Positions 29,872-60,678 are shown, counted from the first letter of the stretch. The stretch is 64,000 nucleotides of DNA from Candidatus Poribacteria bacterium (GCA_965242965.1 OZ251518.1:4256001-4320000); one strand, 5' to 3'. The notes: a model not told the origin generated them from the letters alone. Made by a program: numbers and translations.

Positions 29872-30373
29872 TGAGGGTGTTTCATATTTCGATGCCTCTG
29901 GGGTAGGCGAGACCTCCCTCCGTCCGTAGCGCGGGGGCCTGTCCCCCGCGATCGTTGGGATGCGCGGACGCTGGCGAGGGACAGGCCCTCGCCCTACGGT
30001 GAAAGTGGGCTTTTCTCCGTCCGTAGCGCGGGGGCCTGTCCCCCGCGATTGTTGGGATGCGCGTGCATGAACGATGGCGAGGGACAGGCCCTCGCTACGG
30101 TGCGGGGGTGGCGTTTTTTATCGTAGCGCGGGGGCCTGTCCCCCGCGATCGTTAGATTGCGCGTGCACGCACGATGGCGAGAAAACCCGAGACGTTTTTT
30201 CCGTAGCGGGAACGATGGCGAGGGACAGGCCCTCGCCCTACGATGAAGGGGGGGCTTTCTGCCGCCGCTGCTCCGGTCGGCGCGCCACCCTATTGCATCG
30301 AGACCAGGAGGTCTCTCCTACTAGGAAAACGGAAGCGTTCGGGGTGTCACGAAACCATTTTTTACAACAACGA
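29872..30373. repeat. Composite REP/MITE-like cluster
   Basis: Starts TGAGGGTGTTTCATA; several A/B hairpins; its 3' block is shared with about 44730-44872. Confidence 0.85.
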
Positions 30374-30408
30374 GTTCTGCTAATATGTTTCAAAGAGGAA
30401 ATCAAGTT

Positions 30409-31971
30409 ATGAAGATATGGCGCGTAGGAATGTTAATATGTCTCGCCTGTCTCGTCGCGATGTCGGCGGCGGCGGAGGTGAGTTACCACGGACAGATTGT
30501 CCCGATTCTTAAGCGGAGTTGCCAAGGGTGCCACCACCCAGGCGATGCGAATGGCGATTTTATTGTGACGACATACGCCGAGCTCACGCGCGGCGGCATG
30601 GCAGGCGCGGCAATCATACCGGGGCAGCCAGATGAGAGTCTCCTCATCAAACTCATCTCTGGCGATGAGCCCGCGATGCCGCAGAATCAAGAGCCGCTGT
30701 CCGCTGAAGAAGTGGCATTTTTCCGGCAATGGATTCTGGAAGGCGCGCGCGACGATACGCCCACGGAAGTTGACGATTTAGGCGAGGGAAATTATCCTGT
30801 CTACACAGTGCCGCCTGTCGTTTCCGCGCTGGCGTATTCACCCGATGGCGGAACATTGGCAGTGTCCGGTGTCCGCGAGGTGCTGTTGTATGACACAACA
30901 CATTTTGAACTGAAGGCGCGGTTAGTCGGTAAGGCGCGCCGCATTCAGTCGCTCACGTATGCTGTCGATGGGAAACTCTTGGGCGTTGCAGGCGGCTCCC
31001 CTGCGCAATTCGGCGAAGTGCAATTGTGGGATACGGAGACAAATACCCTCGTCAAGGCGATACGTGCGAGTTATGATACCGTATATGGGCTTTCGTTTTC
31101 ACCAGATGCGAGTCGCATCGCATTCGGGTGTTCGGACCAGACAGTGCGCGTGCTCTCTGTTGCAGATGAGAAAGAACTGGTTAAATTTGATAACCACGGC
31201 GACTGGGTTTTCGGTACCATTTTCTCCACAGACGGCACGCATTTCGTGAGTTGCGGCCGCGACACCGCACTCAAACTCGTTGAAGTAGACACCGGCTCTT
31301 TCGTTGACGACATCAACTCCAGCAATAAGGGATACGGCGAGATAAATACCCTCGCGCGGCACCCCTCGGCGGACGAAGTATTGAGCGGCGGCGAGGACAG
31401 AATTCCGAGACGTTACAAAATCTTCCGCGAAATCCGACGCGACGTTGGGAACACTGACTTTAACCTCATCAAGGCGTATGAGGCGCAATCCGGTTCAATT
31501 GAGGCTGTCGCGTTTTCTGCCGATGGGAGTCTGTTTGCCGCGGGTAATGCCGGCGGTGAAGTGCGCGTCTATAACGTAGAAGATGGCACGCGCGTCGCAT
31601 CAATACGCGGCGATACTGTCGGCGTTTTCGCTGTCGCTTTTCATCCGGAAGGCACGCAACTCGCCGTGGGCGGTTTTGATGGAAAGGTTCGTGTCTTCGC
31701 TCCGAGTTCAGGAAAATTAATCACGGCGTTTATGTCTGTGCCGATAGAGGCTTCTGCCAGCGAAGATGTCGCCTTAACCGTCAGCGGCATGACGTGAGGG
31801 GCGTGTGTAACGAAAGTGCAGGATGCACTGACAAACCTCCAAGACGTTATCAGCGTCAAAGTTTCGCTGCCAGACCGGGCTGTCATTAAGGTTCGGAAAA
31901 ATGCTGTCTCTGCCGCGGATTTGGCGGATGTCATCAAGGCGACAGGATTTAGCGCAACCGCTAGTCAATGA
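30409..31971 (+). CDS. Exported planctomycete-type cytochrome c + WD40 propeller + C-terminal HMA domain; probable selenoprotein (Sec at TGA 31795-31797)
   Basis: Signal peptide, CQGCH heme motif with distal MP, WD40 blades; in-frame VSGMT-TGA-GACVTKVQDALTNLQDVISVKVSL..VSAADLADVIKATGFSA to TGA 31969-31971. The ORF track stops at 31797. Confidence 0.85.
31815..31829 (+). promoter_or_regulatory. Putative bacterial SECIS hairpin
   Basis: AGTGCA-GGA-TGCACT, loop G 23 nt after the UGA; resembles the upper stem-loop of the E. coli fdhF SECIS (UUGCAGGUCUGCAC). Confidence 0.7.
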
Positions 31972-32678
31972 GGTATGAGAGAATGAACACTGACATTCAC
32001 CGCCTTGCGGAGGAAGGAATACCCCTGCCTGACAATGTCACCATGACGTTGGAGGAGTTCCTTGAAAACGATGTAGAGGGGTATGAATACGCTGAGGGGA
32101 AATTGGTGCCGAAGCATCCACTCCCTCCCCACTTTGAGCACGAAGGCGTTCCGCCTAAACAGATCAAAATGACGTTGGAGGAGTTCCTTGAAAACGATGT
32201 AGAAGGATACGAATACGTCAAAGGAGAATTAGTGCCGATGCCCGGTACATCTAGGGAACACGGAGAAATTAGCGTCAATGTCATTCGGCATTTGGATGCA
32301 CATGTTTATCAGCATCAATTGGGACGCTTGTATACAGCGGATACGACGTTCCAAGTCGGGGAACGCGTTATGAAGCCGGATGTCGCATTTGTCGCCACGG
32401 AACGCTTGACCGGAGACAAAAAGAAAGGGTTACCGATTCCGCCGGACTTGGCGGTAGAGGTGATTTCGCCATCAGATGTGCTATCTCGCATCGTTGAAAA
32501 GGCGTTCAGCTACTTGGCCGCTGGCACCCGAGTCGTCTGGGTTATCGAACCTACCGCGAAAACGGTAACGGTATACCGTTCGGAGACGGACATCACCTTG
32601 CTCCAGCGCGACGATACGCTCACCTGCGAAGATGTCGTTGAAGGATTCTCTTGCCCGGTGGCGCAACTTTTTGAATAA
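31968..32678 (+). CDS. Uma2 (DUF820) family PD-(D/E)XK endonuclease-like protein with duplicated N-terminal motif
   Basis: YEYVKGELVPMP..HGEI, KPDVAFV, PDLAVEVISPSD, YLAAGTRVVWVIEP. Start is 31968 (ATGA overlap with the readthrough stop) or 31983. Confidence 0.9.
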   Translation: MRYERMNTDIHRLAEEGIPLPDNVTMTLEEFLENDVEGYEYAEGKLVPKHPLPPHFEHEGVPPKQIKMTLEEFLENDVEGYEYVKGELVPMPGTSREHGEISVNVIRHLDAHVYQHQLGRLYTADTTFQVGERVMKPDVAFVATERLTGDKKKGLPIPPDLAVEVISPSDVLSRIVEKAFSYLAAGTRVVWVIEPTAKTVTVYRSETDITLLQRDDTLTCEDVVEGFSCPVAQLFE

Positions 32679-32681
32679 CTT

Positions 32682-34154
32682 ATGACTACTAACACGCCAA
32701 ACATCCTCTGGCTCTGCACAGACCAGCAACGTTACGATACCATCGGCGCGCTCGGTAATCCGCACGTCGCAACGCCGAACATCGATAGCCTCGTCGCGGA
32801 AGGTGTCGCCTTTACGCACGCCTACTGCCAGAGCCCGATATGCACGCCGAGTCGCGCCAGTTTCCTCACCGGGATGTACCCGAGTGCTGTTCACGCGAAC
32901 GGCAACGGGAACGATTTCTTTCCCGATACCTATCCGCTCGTCACGCGCACGCTTGCAGATGCAGGATACGATTGCGGACTCATCGGCAAACTTCATCTCG
33001 CAAGCGCGCACCGGCGGGTTGAACCGAGAGTGAACGACGGCTACCGCTATTGGCAGTATAGCCACGCGCCACGCGATGACTGGGATGTCGGACACGATTA
33101 TGCGGATTGGGTGCGCTCCAAGGGTTATGTCCTCGGCGAACTGACGCAGGATGCGAGAGGCGTGCCTGCCGAGCTGCATCAGACAACGTGGTGCGCCGAA
33201 AAGACAATTGAGTTCATCCGCGAAGAACGTGACTGCCCATGGCTAGCGAGTGTCAATATCTATGATCCGCACCCGCCGTTCAACCCGCCGCAGACGCATC
33301 GCGAACGGTTTGAGCCGGGGCAAATGCCGCCACCACTCTTCCGTGATAGCGATTTAGAGCAGCATCGGCGATTGCAGAAAGTTGACTTCCAGTCGAAGGG
33401 CAGAACACCCGATAACTTGGACATACGGAGTCCTATCTTGCCGCACGCGCCGCTTTCTCGCGCAGGAACGCGACGCGACGATGGGGCAAATCCAGAACCG
33501 CGCCGAGACGCACAAACCCTCAAAGCCGCCTATTACGCGATGATCCAACTCATTGACGAACAGGTAGGACGGATGCTGGAGGTGCTAGAAGAGACGGGAC
33601 AGCGCGACAACACCCTCATCATTTTCACCAGCGACCACGGTGAAACCCTCGGGGACCACGGGCTTATCCAAAAAGGATGCCGCTTTTATGAGGGACTCGT
33701 GCGGGTGCCGCTTATCTTCTCGTGGCCAGGGAAAATCGCCAGCGGCCTGAAAAGCGACGCGCTCGTTGAACTTACCGACAAAGCACCCACGTTGTTGGAA
33801 GCGGCGGGATTACCCGTGCCAGGCTGGATGCAAGGCAGAACGCTCATACCTATCCTCACCGGCACCGCGGATGCAAGCCATCACCGTAATTTCGTTCGAT
33901 GCGAATACTACGATGCGGTTAATTTACCAGACCACTCTTTCGCAACGATGTATCGGGATGAGCGTTACAAGTTAGTAGTGTATCACGGACACGAAGAGGG
34001 GGAACTCTACGATTTGGCGGCGGACCCGGGTGAGTTTGATAACCTCTGGCATACCCCGGAGAATCAGGCTCTTAAGTTGGAGTTGTTGAAGCGCAGTTTT
34101 GATGCCTCCATGTTCGCCATGGATAGGGGACCACGGCGAGTGGGGCCGATGTAA
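32682..34154 (+). CDS. Formylglycine-dependent sulfatase (S1 family)
   Basis: PNILWLCTDQQR, CTPSRASFLTG (CxPxR), GKLH, DPHPPF, TSDHGE, ELYDL..DPGE. Confidence 0.95.
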   Translation: MTTNTPNILWLCTDQQRYDTIGALGNPHVATPNIDSLVAEGVAFTHAYCQSPICTPSRASFLTGMYPSAVHANGNGNDFFPDTYPLVTRTLADAGYDCGLIGKLHLASAHRRVEPRVNDGYRYWQYSHAPRDDWDVGHDYADWVRSKGYVLGELTQDARGVPAELHQTTWCAEKTIEFIREERDCPWLASVNIYDPHPPFNPPQTHRERFEPGQMPPPLFRDSDLEQHRRLQKVDFQSKGRTPDNLDIRSPILPHAPLSRAGTRRDDGANPEPRRDAQTLKAAYYAMIQLIDEQVGRMLEVLEETGQRDNTLIIFTSDHGETLGDHGLIQKGCRFYEGLVRVPLIFSWPGKIASGLKSDALVELTDKAPTLLEAAGLPVPGWMQGRTLIPILTGTADASHHRNFVRCEYYDAVNLPDHSFATMYRDERYKLVVYHGHEEGELYDLAADPGEFDNLWHTPENQALKLELLKRSFDASMFAMDRGPRRVGPM

Positions 34155-58097: not shown

Positions 58098-59807
58098 ATG
58101 ATACGCCGATATCAAAACACGATTTTCCTGACACTGCTGCTCGCGCTGGCATCAGTCTTTTCGGTGGCAGACGCACAGAACGCACCGGAAGCCTCTGAAG
58201 AAGGCAAACGGGTTTATGAGAAGAGCTGCGCGCACTGCCACGGCACTGAAGGACGCGGGGACGGTTCCGCCGCCGAAAATCTGCTCCCGAGACCGCGGGA
58301 TTTCACCCGCGGTCTGTATAAAATCCGCTCAACTGAAACCGGACAGCTCCCCACTGACCAGGATTTGTTTGACATTATCACGGAGGGAATGCCTGGTTCC
58401 TCAATGCCGGGATGGGAGACTGCGCTGAGTGCTAACGAACGGTGGGAGGTCACCGCCTATATCAAAACCTTTTACGAGGGGTTCAAAGAGAATACAGCAC
58501 CGCGCCAAATCGATCTTTCCAGCAAAATCGCCTACTCTGAACAGAGCGTTGAGACAGGCAAAGCACTCTATACTGAACTCGGTTGTGTTGAATGCCACGG
58601 CGATGTTGGTCGCGGCGATGGCACCTCCGCGCCAACCCTCACCGACGAATGGGGTTTCCAAACCTGGCCCGCGAATTTGGCGCAAGGTTGGACTTTCAGA
58701 GGCGGCGGCGAGACAGAGGACATCTTCAAACGGTTCATCGGCGGCATTGCCGGCTCACCGATGCCTGCCTTTGAGGGGGATAGCTTCCTGCACTTCGGGT
58801 TGACTTCGGAGGAATCCAAACGCCTTACCGAATTGGAAAACAGGGACGAAATGACAGAGGCTGAGGACGAGGAATCCGCGGCGTTCTACGAGAAAATGGA
58901 GGTCGCGATTGACATTGCACTCAGAATCACCGAAGGCGACACCTTGAACGCGGCAGACCGGCAGACCTTTGATAATGCGATGAAAGTGGTGTATGAGAAG
59001 AGTTGGCATCTGGCGAACTACGTCAAATCTCTCTCACCCGAAAAGCGTCCTGCACCGGCGATCGGCAACAACGTGCTGCGAGCGCAGTATGTCAATGGCG
59101 AATTGCCCGCGCTAGGCGATGCGGCATGGGAAACGCTGAAATCCAGTTATTTCCCGCTTGTCGGACAGGTAATTCTTGAACCAAGGCAGTTCAACCCGAC
59201 GATTGACTCGGTTAACGTCAAATCGTTCTACAACGATACCGAGGTGGTGTTCCTCTTCACGTGGGATGACAGAACGCACACCACGGCGTTAGAGGATGAA
59301 GAAACAGGCAAGGTGCTTGAGGATGCATTGACAATCCAATTTCCTGTCAAGGTGCCTCAAGGGCCGACCGCGCCGAAACCGTATTTCCTCTGGGGCGGCA
59401 GGCTGCCAGTCTATCTTTGGCACTGGAAGGCTTCTGCGCCTGAGCAGATAACGGAACTAACTGCCAAAGGCATTAATAACGCCGAAGTGCAGGCGGCGCA
59501 AAGCGACATCCAAGCACAAGGGACATACACAACCGGGCAATACAACTTGTGGGTGAAACGTGCGTTGAAAACGGACGACAAGAAAGACTTGCAGATTGAA
59601 CCGGGTGTGTTTGTGCCTATCGCCTTCTCGGCGTGGGATGGCGCGAATGGCGATGTAGAGGCAAAACGGGTCATCTCTAGCTGGTATACGTTCGTTCTAG
59701 AACCTGTCCCGTCTTCGAGACGGTTTATCTATCCACCATTGGTGGCACTTCTCTCTGTCGGCGCGCTCTTCGGTTTACGGGGGTTCGTGCGGCGGAGAAA
59801 TTCGTAA
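58098..59807 (+). CDS. Diheme cytochrome c fused to an EbdC/NxrC-like (DMSO reductase type II gamma-like) domain with C-terminal TM
   Basis: CAHCH and CVECH, PRPRDFT; C-terminal VKSFYNDTEVVFLFTWDD, DALTIQFP, WHWKA, KRAL, PIAFSAWDG..SSW. Confidence 0.82.
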   Translation: MIRRYQNTIFLTLLLALASVFSVADAQNAPEASEEGKRVYEKSCAHCHGTEGRGDGSAAENLLPRPRDFTRGLYKIRSTETGQLPTDQDLFDIITEGMPGSSMPGWETALSANERWEVTAYIKTFYEGFKENTAPRQIDLSSKIAYSEQSVETGKALYTELGCVECHGDVGRGDGTSAPTLTDEWGFQTWPANLAQGWTFRGGGETEDIFKRFIGGIAGSPMPAFEGDSFLHFGLTSEESKRLTELENRDEMTEAEDEESAAFYEKMEVAIDIALRITEGDTLNAADRQTFDNAMKVVYEKSWHLANYVKSLSPEKRPAPAIGNNVLRAQYVNGELPALGDAAWETLKSSYFPLVGQVILEPRQFNPTIDSVNVKSFYNDTEVVFLFTWDDRTHTTALEDEETGKVLEDALTIQFPVKVPQGPTAPKPYFLWGGRLPVYLWHWKASAPEQITELTAKGINNAEVQAAQSDIQAQGTYTTGQYNLWVKRALKTDDKKDLQIEPGVFVPIAFSAWDGANGDVEAKRVISSWYTFVLEPVPSSRRFIYPPLVALLSVGALFGLRGFVRRRNS

Positions 59808-59889
59808 ATAGCAACGGGGAAGTGTGAATTTCCCCGACTAATCCGAGGCGCGCGGTTTGAAACCGCGCCTAAAAGAGAGGATACTCAAA

Positions 59890-60678
59890 ATGAAAACCTA
59901 CATGTTGGCATGCCTCGCGCTGCTTCTAGCGTGTTGCTGCTGCATTCCTGCTAGTGCAGACCATCACGCGGCGGGTGAGATGGAGATGCTCCAGTTCCCC
60001 GAATCCTACAAAGCGATGGCGGTGAGCAACGGCGGAACGATTAGCGGCACCGTGACGTTTGACGGCGACGTGCCAGAAATGAAAGTGCTCGAAATCACCA
60101 AAGACCAGGCGGTTTGCGACTTGACTGAGAAGCATGATGAATCGCTTGTCATTGGTGAAGGCAACGCTTTAAAAAATACGATTGTCTACCTGATAGACAT
60201 TTCCCAAGGCAAAGCTGTCGATAAAAAGGCGAAACCCGCGATCGACCAGAAGGGATGTAAATTCACCCCTCACGTCCAGATTGTTCCAGTCGGCGTGCGC
60301 CTGACGATGCTGAATAGCGACAAAGTCAATCACAACGTGCATATTTTCAGCAGCGTCAACAAACCGGTGAACAAACAGCAGACGAAGAACCGGAAGAAGA
60401 TGCCGCTCGCTGGTGTCAAGAAGGCGGAAGGGCCGGTCCAGATGAAATGCGATATCCACGGTTGGATGTCTGCATGGCTCGCCTATGTGCCGCATCCCTA
60501 CTTCGCTGTGACAGATGAGATGGGCAAATTCACGCTGGAAGATGTCCCTCCCGGCACGTATCAACTTGGGTATTGGCATGAAGCGTGTGGCACGAACAGC
60601 AAAAAGCCGGCTACCGTTACGGTAGAGGCAGGCGGCACTGTCACGCAGGACTTCACGTTATCCATGAAAAAGATGTAA
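59890..60678 (+). CDS. Second periplasmic cupredoxin-like protein, paralog of 52926..53678
   Basis: DQKGCKFTPHV, HNVH, CDIHGWM, HPYFAVTD, WHE. Confidence 0.82.
   Translation: MKTYMLACLALLLACCCCIPASADHHAAGEMEMLQFPESYKAMAVSNGGTISGTVTFDGDVPEMKVLEITKDQAVCDLTEKHDESLVIGEGNALKNTIVYLIDISQGKAVDKKAKPAIDQKGCKFTPHVQIVPVGVRLTMLNSDKVNHNVHIFSSVNKPVNKQQTKNRKKMPLAGVKKAEGPVQMKCDIHGWMSAWLAYVPHPYFAVTDEMGKFTLEDVPPGTYQLGYWHEACGTNSKKPATVTVEAGGTVTQDFTLSMKKM

Follow-up and report, generated by a model that had tools for sequence, protein, structure and literature searches.

The gene described here lies on the plus strand, at positions 30409-31971, of a 64,000-nucleotide (nt) stretch of Candidatus Poribacteria bacterium DNA (GCA_965242965.1 OZ251518.1:4256001-4320000; G000:C1:4256001-4320000 in our own numbering), hereafter the window. 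This interval very likely forms a single gene, encoding an exported selenoprotein 520 residues long with a presumed soft-metal function, and its in-frame TGA at 31795-31797 almost certainly encodes selenocysteine (Sec). The TGA and the frame downstream of it are conserved in 115 genomes and thus lie beyond chance. Judged by sequence comparison, the gene is genuine, conserved and systematically misannotated; the placement of Sec within an HMA domain is a known theme, and the architecture is new. The protein would represent a new selenoprotein family combining a signal peptide, heme c, a WD40 propeller and a Sec-HMA domain, near-universal (110 of 112 genomes) in one sponge-associated family, and its close homologues are labelled Candidatus Poribacteria.

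Reading frame and domain architecture

The open reading frame (ORF) beginning at ATG 30409, for which the ORF listing gives ATG 30385 as an alternative start, meets its first in-frame TGA at 31795-31797. An earlier note, made from the sequence alone, had claimed that the frame stays open beyond this codon, and translation confirms it: with the TGA read as U, 57 further codons (GACVTKVQ...ATASQ) extend up to TGA 31969-31971. The same note had assigned the TGA to the first Cys position within a complete HMA domain. In the read-through protein, PF00403 indeed matches residues 456-514 across VALTVSGMT-(TGA)-GAC with 40.1 bits against a cut-off of 24.8. The TGA occupies the first-Cys position of the HMA motif GMT-C-xx-C and, in both Pfam and the AlphaFold2 (AF2) model, splits the domain, with strand beta-1 (VALTVSGMT) upstream and the remainder downstream. 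The orthologues align end to end with the coding sequence 30409-31971 with a single internal TGA, and sequence conservation ceases past 31971. The features of the gene are as follows.

30394..30399 (+): putative ribosome-binding site, AGAGGA, 9 nt 5' of ATG 30409, as read from the sequence
30409..31971 (+): predicted full selenoprotein coding sequence, 520 residues with Sec as residue 463, followed by the terminal TGA
30409..30474 (+): predicted Sec-type signal peptide, residues 1-22, MKIWRVGMLICLACLVAMSAAA with the boundary before EV, by inspection
30520..30681 (+): PSCyt1 c-type cytochrome domain, residues 38-91 (PF07635)
30520-30534 (+): heme-binding motif CQGCH, inside the PSCyt1 domain
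30817..31743 (+): seven-bladed WD40 beta-propeller, approximately residues 137-445 (PF00400, AF2, Foldseek)
31759..31962 (+): HMA domain, residues 451-518, beta-alpha-beta-beta-alpha-beta, spanning the TGA (PF00403 and AF2)
31795..31797 (+): UGA, predicted selenocysteine codon, U463, first ligand in GMT-U-GA-C, from orthologue conservation
31804..31806 (+): TGT, Cys466, second ligand of UxxC, from the orthologue alignment
31815..31829 (+): putative core hairpin of the selenocysteine insertion sequence (SECIS), AGUGCA-GGA-UGCACU, stem 17 nt and loop 23 nt past the UGA
31969..31971 (+): true stop (TGA) of the full-length protein, from read-through translation and orthologue ends

The heme c/propeller/UxxC architecture that had been proposed from the sequence alone is borne out by Pfam and by the structure model. 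At the N-terminal side, PSCyt1 (PF07635) matches residues 38-91 with 40.5 bits against a cut-off of 22, and C38, Q39, G40, C41, H42, M90 and P91 are invariant in 25/25 aligned orthologues; CQGCH is probably the attachment site of a mono-heme c, with Met90 as the probable axial ligand. Inspection of the alignment reveals a hydrophobic N-terminus in all orthologues. A lipoprotein signal was considered and ruled out by eye, the orthologues carrying no conserved lipobox Cys. Since the N-terminus resembles a Sec signal peptide and maturation of c-type cytochromes takes place outside the cytoplasm, the protein is presumably periplasmic.

The WD40 family (PF00400) matches with 96.8 bits, and many propeller families also match residues 137-450. 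The AF2 model, which draws on 25 of the 31 orthologous loci, has a mean predicted local distance difference test (pLDDT) value of 81.3 and a predicted template modelling score (pTM) of 0.75. The propeller is modelled with a pLDDT of approximately 90, and the heme domain is modelled poorly, as expected, because the model contains no heme. The HMA domain (residues 451-518, pLDDT approximately 91) adopts a beta-alpha-beta-beta-alpha-beta arrangement with strands at 451-459, 480-486, 490-496 and 515-518 and helices at 464-475 and 502-511. In a Foldseek search of the whole model against the PDB, only generic WD40 propellers were retrieved and nothing enzyme-like; the best match was the seven-bladed propeller 7bie_A, with a template modelling (TM) score of 0.92 normalised to the target, and the propeller model matches 7bie_A and 5yzv with TM scores of 0.88-0.92. 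Several propeller motifs are strongly conserved, namely FDNH.DWV.GT (260-270), DD.N.SNKG (300-308), RRDVGNTDFNLI (343-354) and GGFDG (421-425), and a docking or catalytic face formed by them is a speculative possibility. The third of these (window 31435-31470, plus strand) shows little or no variation across the 25 aligned orthologues, the HMA-less ones included, and its loop is not placed by the AF2 model (pLDDT <50 at residues 345-349); its conservation marks it out as a candidate functional site within the propeller.

Orthologues, selection and annotation

Forty-one related genomes were compared, and each of the 25 that belong to the window's family (f1) matches the protein over its full length with exactly one TGA. 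When 31 orthologous loci were read through, 28 contained TGA at GMT-U-xxC, one contained TGC (G032) and two were without the HMA domain. In the 28 Sec loci, the HMA codons past the TGA number 56 (22 loci), 57 (5 loci) or 58 (one locus), and the final stop, always at the corresponding place, is TAG in 15, TAA in 8 and TGA in 5. The second ligand, Cys466, is Cys in 28/28 of these loci (TGT in 22, TGC in 6).

The scan was extended to 176 genomes of the phylum with E up to 1e-80, and an orthologue was present in 133 of them. TGA stands at the Sec position in 115 of these 133; the genomes are related, so that the counts are not independent events. In family f1, 112 genomes were searched and all 110 orthologues are Sec forms; outside it, Sec forms occur in G064 (family f3) and in G027, G030, G036 and G088 (family f4). 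Nine of the 133 orthologues have no internal stop and match continuously to residues 517-519; a Cys codon was confirmed for two of them (G032, TGC; G066, TGT), and the other seven are genomes of genus g11. A further nine of the 133 are without the HMA domain (G063, three of genus g12 and five of family f8). For G051 and G052, both HMA-less, the TGA acts as a real stop, with unrelated sequence after it. The pattern of Sec, Cys and absent forms is, at the sequence level, the classic signature of a selenoprotein family, and these three forms of one protein offer a natural experiment on what selenium adds to an HMA metal site.

Two loci deviate from the single-TGA arrangement in other ways. The G064 orthologue (L070, G064:C1:396000-398700) ends in two HMA domains in tandem, both with a TGA and a hairpin AGUGC-AGGUC-GCACU of their own, and would contain two selenocysteines. 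In G001, a partial second copy (L021:3499-4068, G001:C53:7076-7654) covering residues 327-519 with 93-95% identity, the TGA included, sits approximately 440 nt downstream of the G001 orthologue.

The earlier note had expected relatives to show TGA or TGC/TGT at this codon together with a conserved downstream frame, and both are found, the downstream frame being under purifying selection. The ratio of nonsynonymous to synonymous substitution rates (dN/dS) was computed over the 54 codons past the TGA in the 28 Sec orthologues, with pairs counted as usable at 0.1 < dS < 3. For the 276 usable pairs out of 378, the median dN is 0.19, the median dS 1.40 and the median dN/dS 0.13; the highest value is 0.51, and all 276 pairs lie below 1. 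With the hairpin codons removed, the median dN/dS is 0.12 (186 usable pairs).

These values bear on the reading of the TGA as a genuine stop, with the downstream HMA-like frame being either a relic in decay or a small ORF of its own (GTG 31816, 51 aa). Gene callers and the best 120 public entries do end at the TGA; nevertheless, the reading is very improbable. The extension has a dN/dS of 0.13 and is free of any frameshift or extra stop in 28/28 orthologues, the Cys-codon orthologues are continuous across the position, and the HMA domain needs the residues 5' of the TGA to be complete. A separate HMA ORF from GTG 31816 was considered and rejected, as it would be without beta-1 and the first ligand.

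The truncation of the protein by standard annotation, likewise anticipated in the earlier note, holds for the best 120 of the 1652 public matches. These entries are 439-494 aa long with 84-89% query coverage and so end at the TGA; they are short by 57-58 residues and have lost the whole metal-binding domain. The public names are 'hypothetical protein [Candidatus Poribacteria bacterium]' or 'WD40 repeat protein'. An assembly error as the origin of the TGA, which had been raised as a possible objection, is excluded by independent contigs showing the TGA. Logan contigs from four runs of four studies (one of which may be the source sample) span 31500-31980 with no indels and no variant at 31795-31797 or 31815-31829, and the same contigs differ at 25 other listed positions.

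The HMA-less orthologues also bring in a reading in which the gene has a selenium-dependent dual output by design, with selenium supply switching between a 462-residue HMA-less form and the 520-residue form. Nine orthologues are naturally HMA-less and end just past the propeller, so the short form should be viable as a protein. However, beta-1 (VALTVSGMT) would be left as an orphan strand in the truncated product, and the strict conservation of the extension shows the long form to be the selected product. A designed dual output is, on balance, unlikely.

The SECIS-like hairpin and the selenocysteine machinery

For the preferred reading, in which U463 is selenocysteine, the UGA at 31795-31797 would be recoded by the SelB and tRNA-Sec of the organism. 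The signal would be a SECIS hairpin at 31815-29, embedded in the coding sequence of HMA helix 1 (K-V-Q-D-A-L). On this reading, termination at the UGA would yield a 462-residue protein resembling the natural HMA-less orthologues, so the proportion of short to long product may depend on how much selenium is supplied. The hairpin that the earlier note had pointed out, AGTGCA (31815-31820)-GGA-TGCACT (31824-31829), is present as described, and a SECIS-like hairpin is conserved in relatives. Its loop begins 23 nt past the UGA, and bacterial SECIS elements have a window of 16-37 nt from UGA to loop. RNAalifold on 28 sequences keeps one helix, AGUGCA-GGN-UGCACU, from 17 nt past the UGA. According to the available text of PMC1088965, a bacterial SECIS is found immediately downstream of the UGA and has a small apical loop containing guanosine, and the hairpin at 31815-31829 has these features, with a 6-bp stem, a GGN loop and an offset of 17 nt.

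The hairpin codons are frozen at synonymous sites, Val being GTG, Gln being CAG and Ala being GCA in 28/28 sequences each; for the other invariant Val codons of the same stretch, two vary over four codons each and the third over two. In the 5.7 Mb genome, GTGCAGGNTGCAC occurs in 4 copies, 3 of which sit 18 nt past HMA TGAs. Pooling 33 Sec-HMA sites (the 28 orthologues, G064 twice, G088 and a poly-HMA gene of the same genome twice), a GGN loop with a stem of at least 5 bp was found at 33/33, as against 0/5 Cys-HMA sites. Six pairs are formed at 31 of the 33; both G064 sites have A-C at the loop-closing pair, and a single Sec-HMA site has U-G in place of U-A. The lineage signature of a UGA, a 17-nt spacer and AGUGCA-GGN-UGCACU is usable to re-annotate other Sec-HMA genes in these genomes.

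Several observations weigh against the assignment of this hairpin as a SECIS. An Rfam search of 31700-32000 with E up to 10 returned no match, and the local fold, at z = -1.38 relative to shuffles, is not significant. A loose GG-loop hairpin follows 139/9721 TGA (1.43%), 98/7447 TAA (1.32%) and 100/6738 TAG (1.48%) codons, and given this equal frequency the presence of a hairpin alone proves nothing; the same genome scan still recovered the fdhA-like and two peroxiredoxin (Prx)-like selenoprotein genes described below. Furthermore, the stem is without compensatory covariation, the only changes being U-A to U-G once and A-U to A-C twice at the loop-closing pair; since it is essentially invariant, no compensatory changes can be counted. 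Finally, the Cys form G066 retains a 6-bp stem, without the GG loop. The K-V-Q-x-A-L peptide constrains these bases and thereby accounts for the retained stem, so the pairing potential is partly forced. From these comparisons, the significance of the hairpin is its nucleotide-level invariance and its co-occurrence with the TGA, not the hairpin by itself.

The search for selA, selB, selC and selD suggested in the earlier note found all four in the genome of the window, above curated cut-offs. The tRNA-Sec gene (selC) reaches 78.1 bits, with the cut-off at 47, and is called SeC(tca) by ARAGORN; selB (331 bits) adjoins it; selA scores 577 bits; and selD, at 358 bits, has its own in-frame TGA at KCAG-U-ASKL. 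This machinery bears on another reading of the TGA, in which a variant code or near-cognate read-through would place one of the standard amino acids (Trp, Cys or Gly) there. Some systems can place Cys at a Sec codon. TGA, however, also ends genes here, as in the terminal stop of this very gene, in 5/28 orthologues and in the HMA-less G051 and G052, and the complete Sec machinery is present together with a conserved SECIS-like element; decoding as a standard amino acid is thus extremely improbable.

Other putative selenoprotein genes were observed in the same genome. An fdhA-like molybdopterin oxidoreductase gene (...NCSRA-U-HAP...) and two genes for exported AhpC/TSA Prx-like proteins with UxxC are located, together with selD, at G000:C1:5501190-5504036 (fdhA-like), 1196316-1197119 and 1012925-1013725 (Prx-like) and 58700-59900 (selD), filed as L061-L064. 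In these four genes, hairpins of 6-7 bp with GG-initial loops are found 11-14 nt past the UGA. A second hidden selenoprotein is suggested at L060:926-2146 (G000:C1:1192425-1193645, minus strand), an exported protein of 406 aa with five tandem HMA domains. Its domains 1-2 have GMT-U-GxC and the identical hairpin AGUGCA-GGN-UGCACU at the identical offset, and its domains 3-5 have GMTCEAC without the hairpin. Relatives have 1-3 in-frame TGAs in the matching genes (G002, G004, G007 and G010).

Proposed function, related systems and gene neighbourhood

The mature product would comprise, after its signal peptide, a mono-heme c domain (PSCyt1), a seven-bladed WD40 propeller and an HMA domain in which U463-x-x-C466 replaces CxxC. 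The CxxC sites of HMA domains bind soft ions such as Cu(I) and Hg(II). In the proposed mechanism, a periplasmic selenolate/thiolate pair would bind a soft metal ion, with the heme c and the propeller providing redox coupling and/or a docking platform; we give this functional assignment, drawn from sequence and fold, an even chance at best, or slightly less. A selenolate should bind soft ions more tightly and exchange them faster than a thiolate. Among solved sequences, those nearest to the HMA domain are metal-binding domains of Cu(I) P-type ATPases, followed by CopZ and MerP, and U463 aligns with the first Cys of GMTCxSC in the ATP7B and CopA metal-binding domains. From these closest sequences, Cu(I) appears the most likely metal, and Hg(II) or Ag(I) would be possible.

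That the heme hands electrons on, either to the metal in the site or to a Se-S redox couple, is speculative. In a bolder and improbable elaboration, the protein would be a periplasmic cytochrome-driven metal reductase or chaperone, in which heme c feeds electrons one at a time into a metal ion bound by the Se/S pair (for example Cu(II) to Cu(I), or Hg(II) towards Hg(0)), the propeller serves for docking, and the UGA also acts as a selenium-sensing isoform switch. If true, such a cytochrome-driven reductase would constitute a flavin-independent route, unlike MerA or known cupric reductases.

Alternatively, UxxC may act as a redox-active selenenylsulfide rather than as a metal site, like the UxxC of thioredoxin-fold selenoproteins, and exchange electrons with either heme c or a propeller-bound substrate. 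In the available catalogue entries, bacterial UxxC selenoproteins are mostly thiol oxidoreductases, a heme c lies within the same chain here, and the other UxxC selenoproteins of the genome are Prx-like. However, the fold and motif are those of HMA (GMT-x-xx-C, beta-alpha-beta-beta-alpha-beta) and not of thioredoxin, the nearest sequences are Cu(I)-binding domains, and the Sec-HMA proteins in the catalogue portions available are entered as metal-binding or transport proteins. A purely redox role is therefore rather unlikely, and soft-metal binding by the Se/S pair is retained as the preferred function.

The statement in the earlier note that Sec-containing HMA/MerP-like proteins exist agrees with the available printed record and with NCBIfam NF041115. 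A 2026 review (PMC13188914), in its available text, lists a Sec P-type ATPase and a 'Metal-binding protein NF041115, UxxU', the latter (UxxU_metal_bind) being a putative mercuric reductase-like protein with 2 Sec; the words 'WD40' and 'HMA' do not occur in that text. Compared by the available table entries and not by sequence, the Sec cation-transporting P-type ATPase resembles the present protein in having Sec at the first Cys of an HMA CxxC and a UGA with a downstream SECIS. It differs in its ATPase domain, which is missing here, the HMA domain of the present protein standing at the C-terminus of an exported heme-c/WD40 protein. The best 25 of 41 Pfam matches include no ATPase family, and there is no room for an ATPase core because the 520 residues are filled by the signal peptide, PSCyt1, WD40 and HMA. 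The match to PRK10671 (CopA) covers the HMA part only, with 33 bits against 1316.

NF041115 is the best NCBIfam match (residues 451-517, 43.7 bits), and both are small Sec-containing HMA-type modules. The score nevertheless falls far below the 95-bit cut-off, the motif is UxxC here compared with UxxU, and a stand-alone family of 74 positions contrasts with a domain of a 520-aa protein. MerP and CopZ share the fold and the GMTCxxC-type site, with E values of 1e-4 to 1e-6 against solved MerP and CopZ structures, and MerP is exported to the periplasm, as would be the product of 30409-31971; in contrast, both are Cys-only, single-domain proteins. The scores against MerP (TIGR02052, 25.1 vs 92.55) and CopZ (NF033794 and NF033795, 40.1 and 39.9 vs 95 and 91) lie below the cut-offs.

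Closer to the core of the protein are HMA-less PSCyt1 and WD40 orthologues and paralogues of the same phylum, which share the signal peptide, the CxxCH domain and the propeller with 50-63% identity, but end 5-15 residues past the last blade and have no Sec. From the existence of such orthologues, the core protein should work without HMA. The poly-HMA selenoprotein of the same genome is likewise exported and has the same GMT-U-GxC and hairpin, but it contains neither cytochrome nor propeller. The combination of cytochrome c, WD40 and Sec-HMA was not found in the available selenoprotein catalogues or in full-text searches of the literature, supplements not covered.

The gene neighbourhood was assessed on 24 of 60 flanking ORFs. 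It offers no pointer to a metal role: the f1 neighbours are a sulfatase, YceI or shikimate dehydrogenase, with no metal genes among the flanking ORFs scanned; Pfam likewise revealed no mer or cop genes adjacent to the selenoprotein gene in this set. A sulfatase lies downstream on the same strand in 7/8 f1 loci, and in 6/8 it is the immediate next gene. None of the four loci from other families gave any Pfam match in the flanking ORFs scanned. The sulfatase neighbourhood is read as synteny by descent and not as a functional clue.

In the window, a gene for a Uma2-family putative endonuclease (31968-32678, plus strand) stands between the selenoprotein gene and the sulfatase gene (32682-34154), and the same arrangement is found in G002. 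The Uma2 gene looks like an insertion, since the sulfatase is the next gene in 6/8 f1 loci. The ATGA overlap between the selenoprotein stop and the next ATG, noted earlier, is real at 31968-31971, though by eye the in-frame ATG 31983, preceded by GAGG, is an equally plausible start.

Upstream, an ORF of 112 aa (30074-30412, plus strand) has no Pfam match, and its TGA overlaps the selenoprotein ATG (ATGA 30409-30412). It carries a palindromic repeat and is probably non-coding. The palindromic element, GAGACC[A/G]GGAGGTCTC with flanks that are usually ATC and TCCTAC, occurs in 668 copies in the 5.7 Mb genome and looks like a repetitive extragenic palindrome (REP) or a terminator. Six copies lie in the window (30300-30315, 16913, 18831, 18864, 19248 and 28013), one of them 109 nt upstream of ATG 30409.

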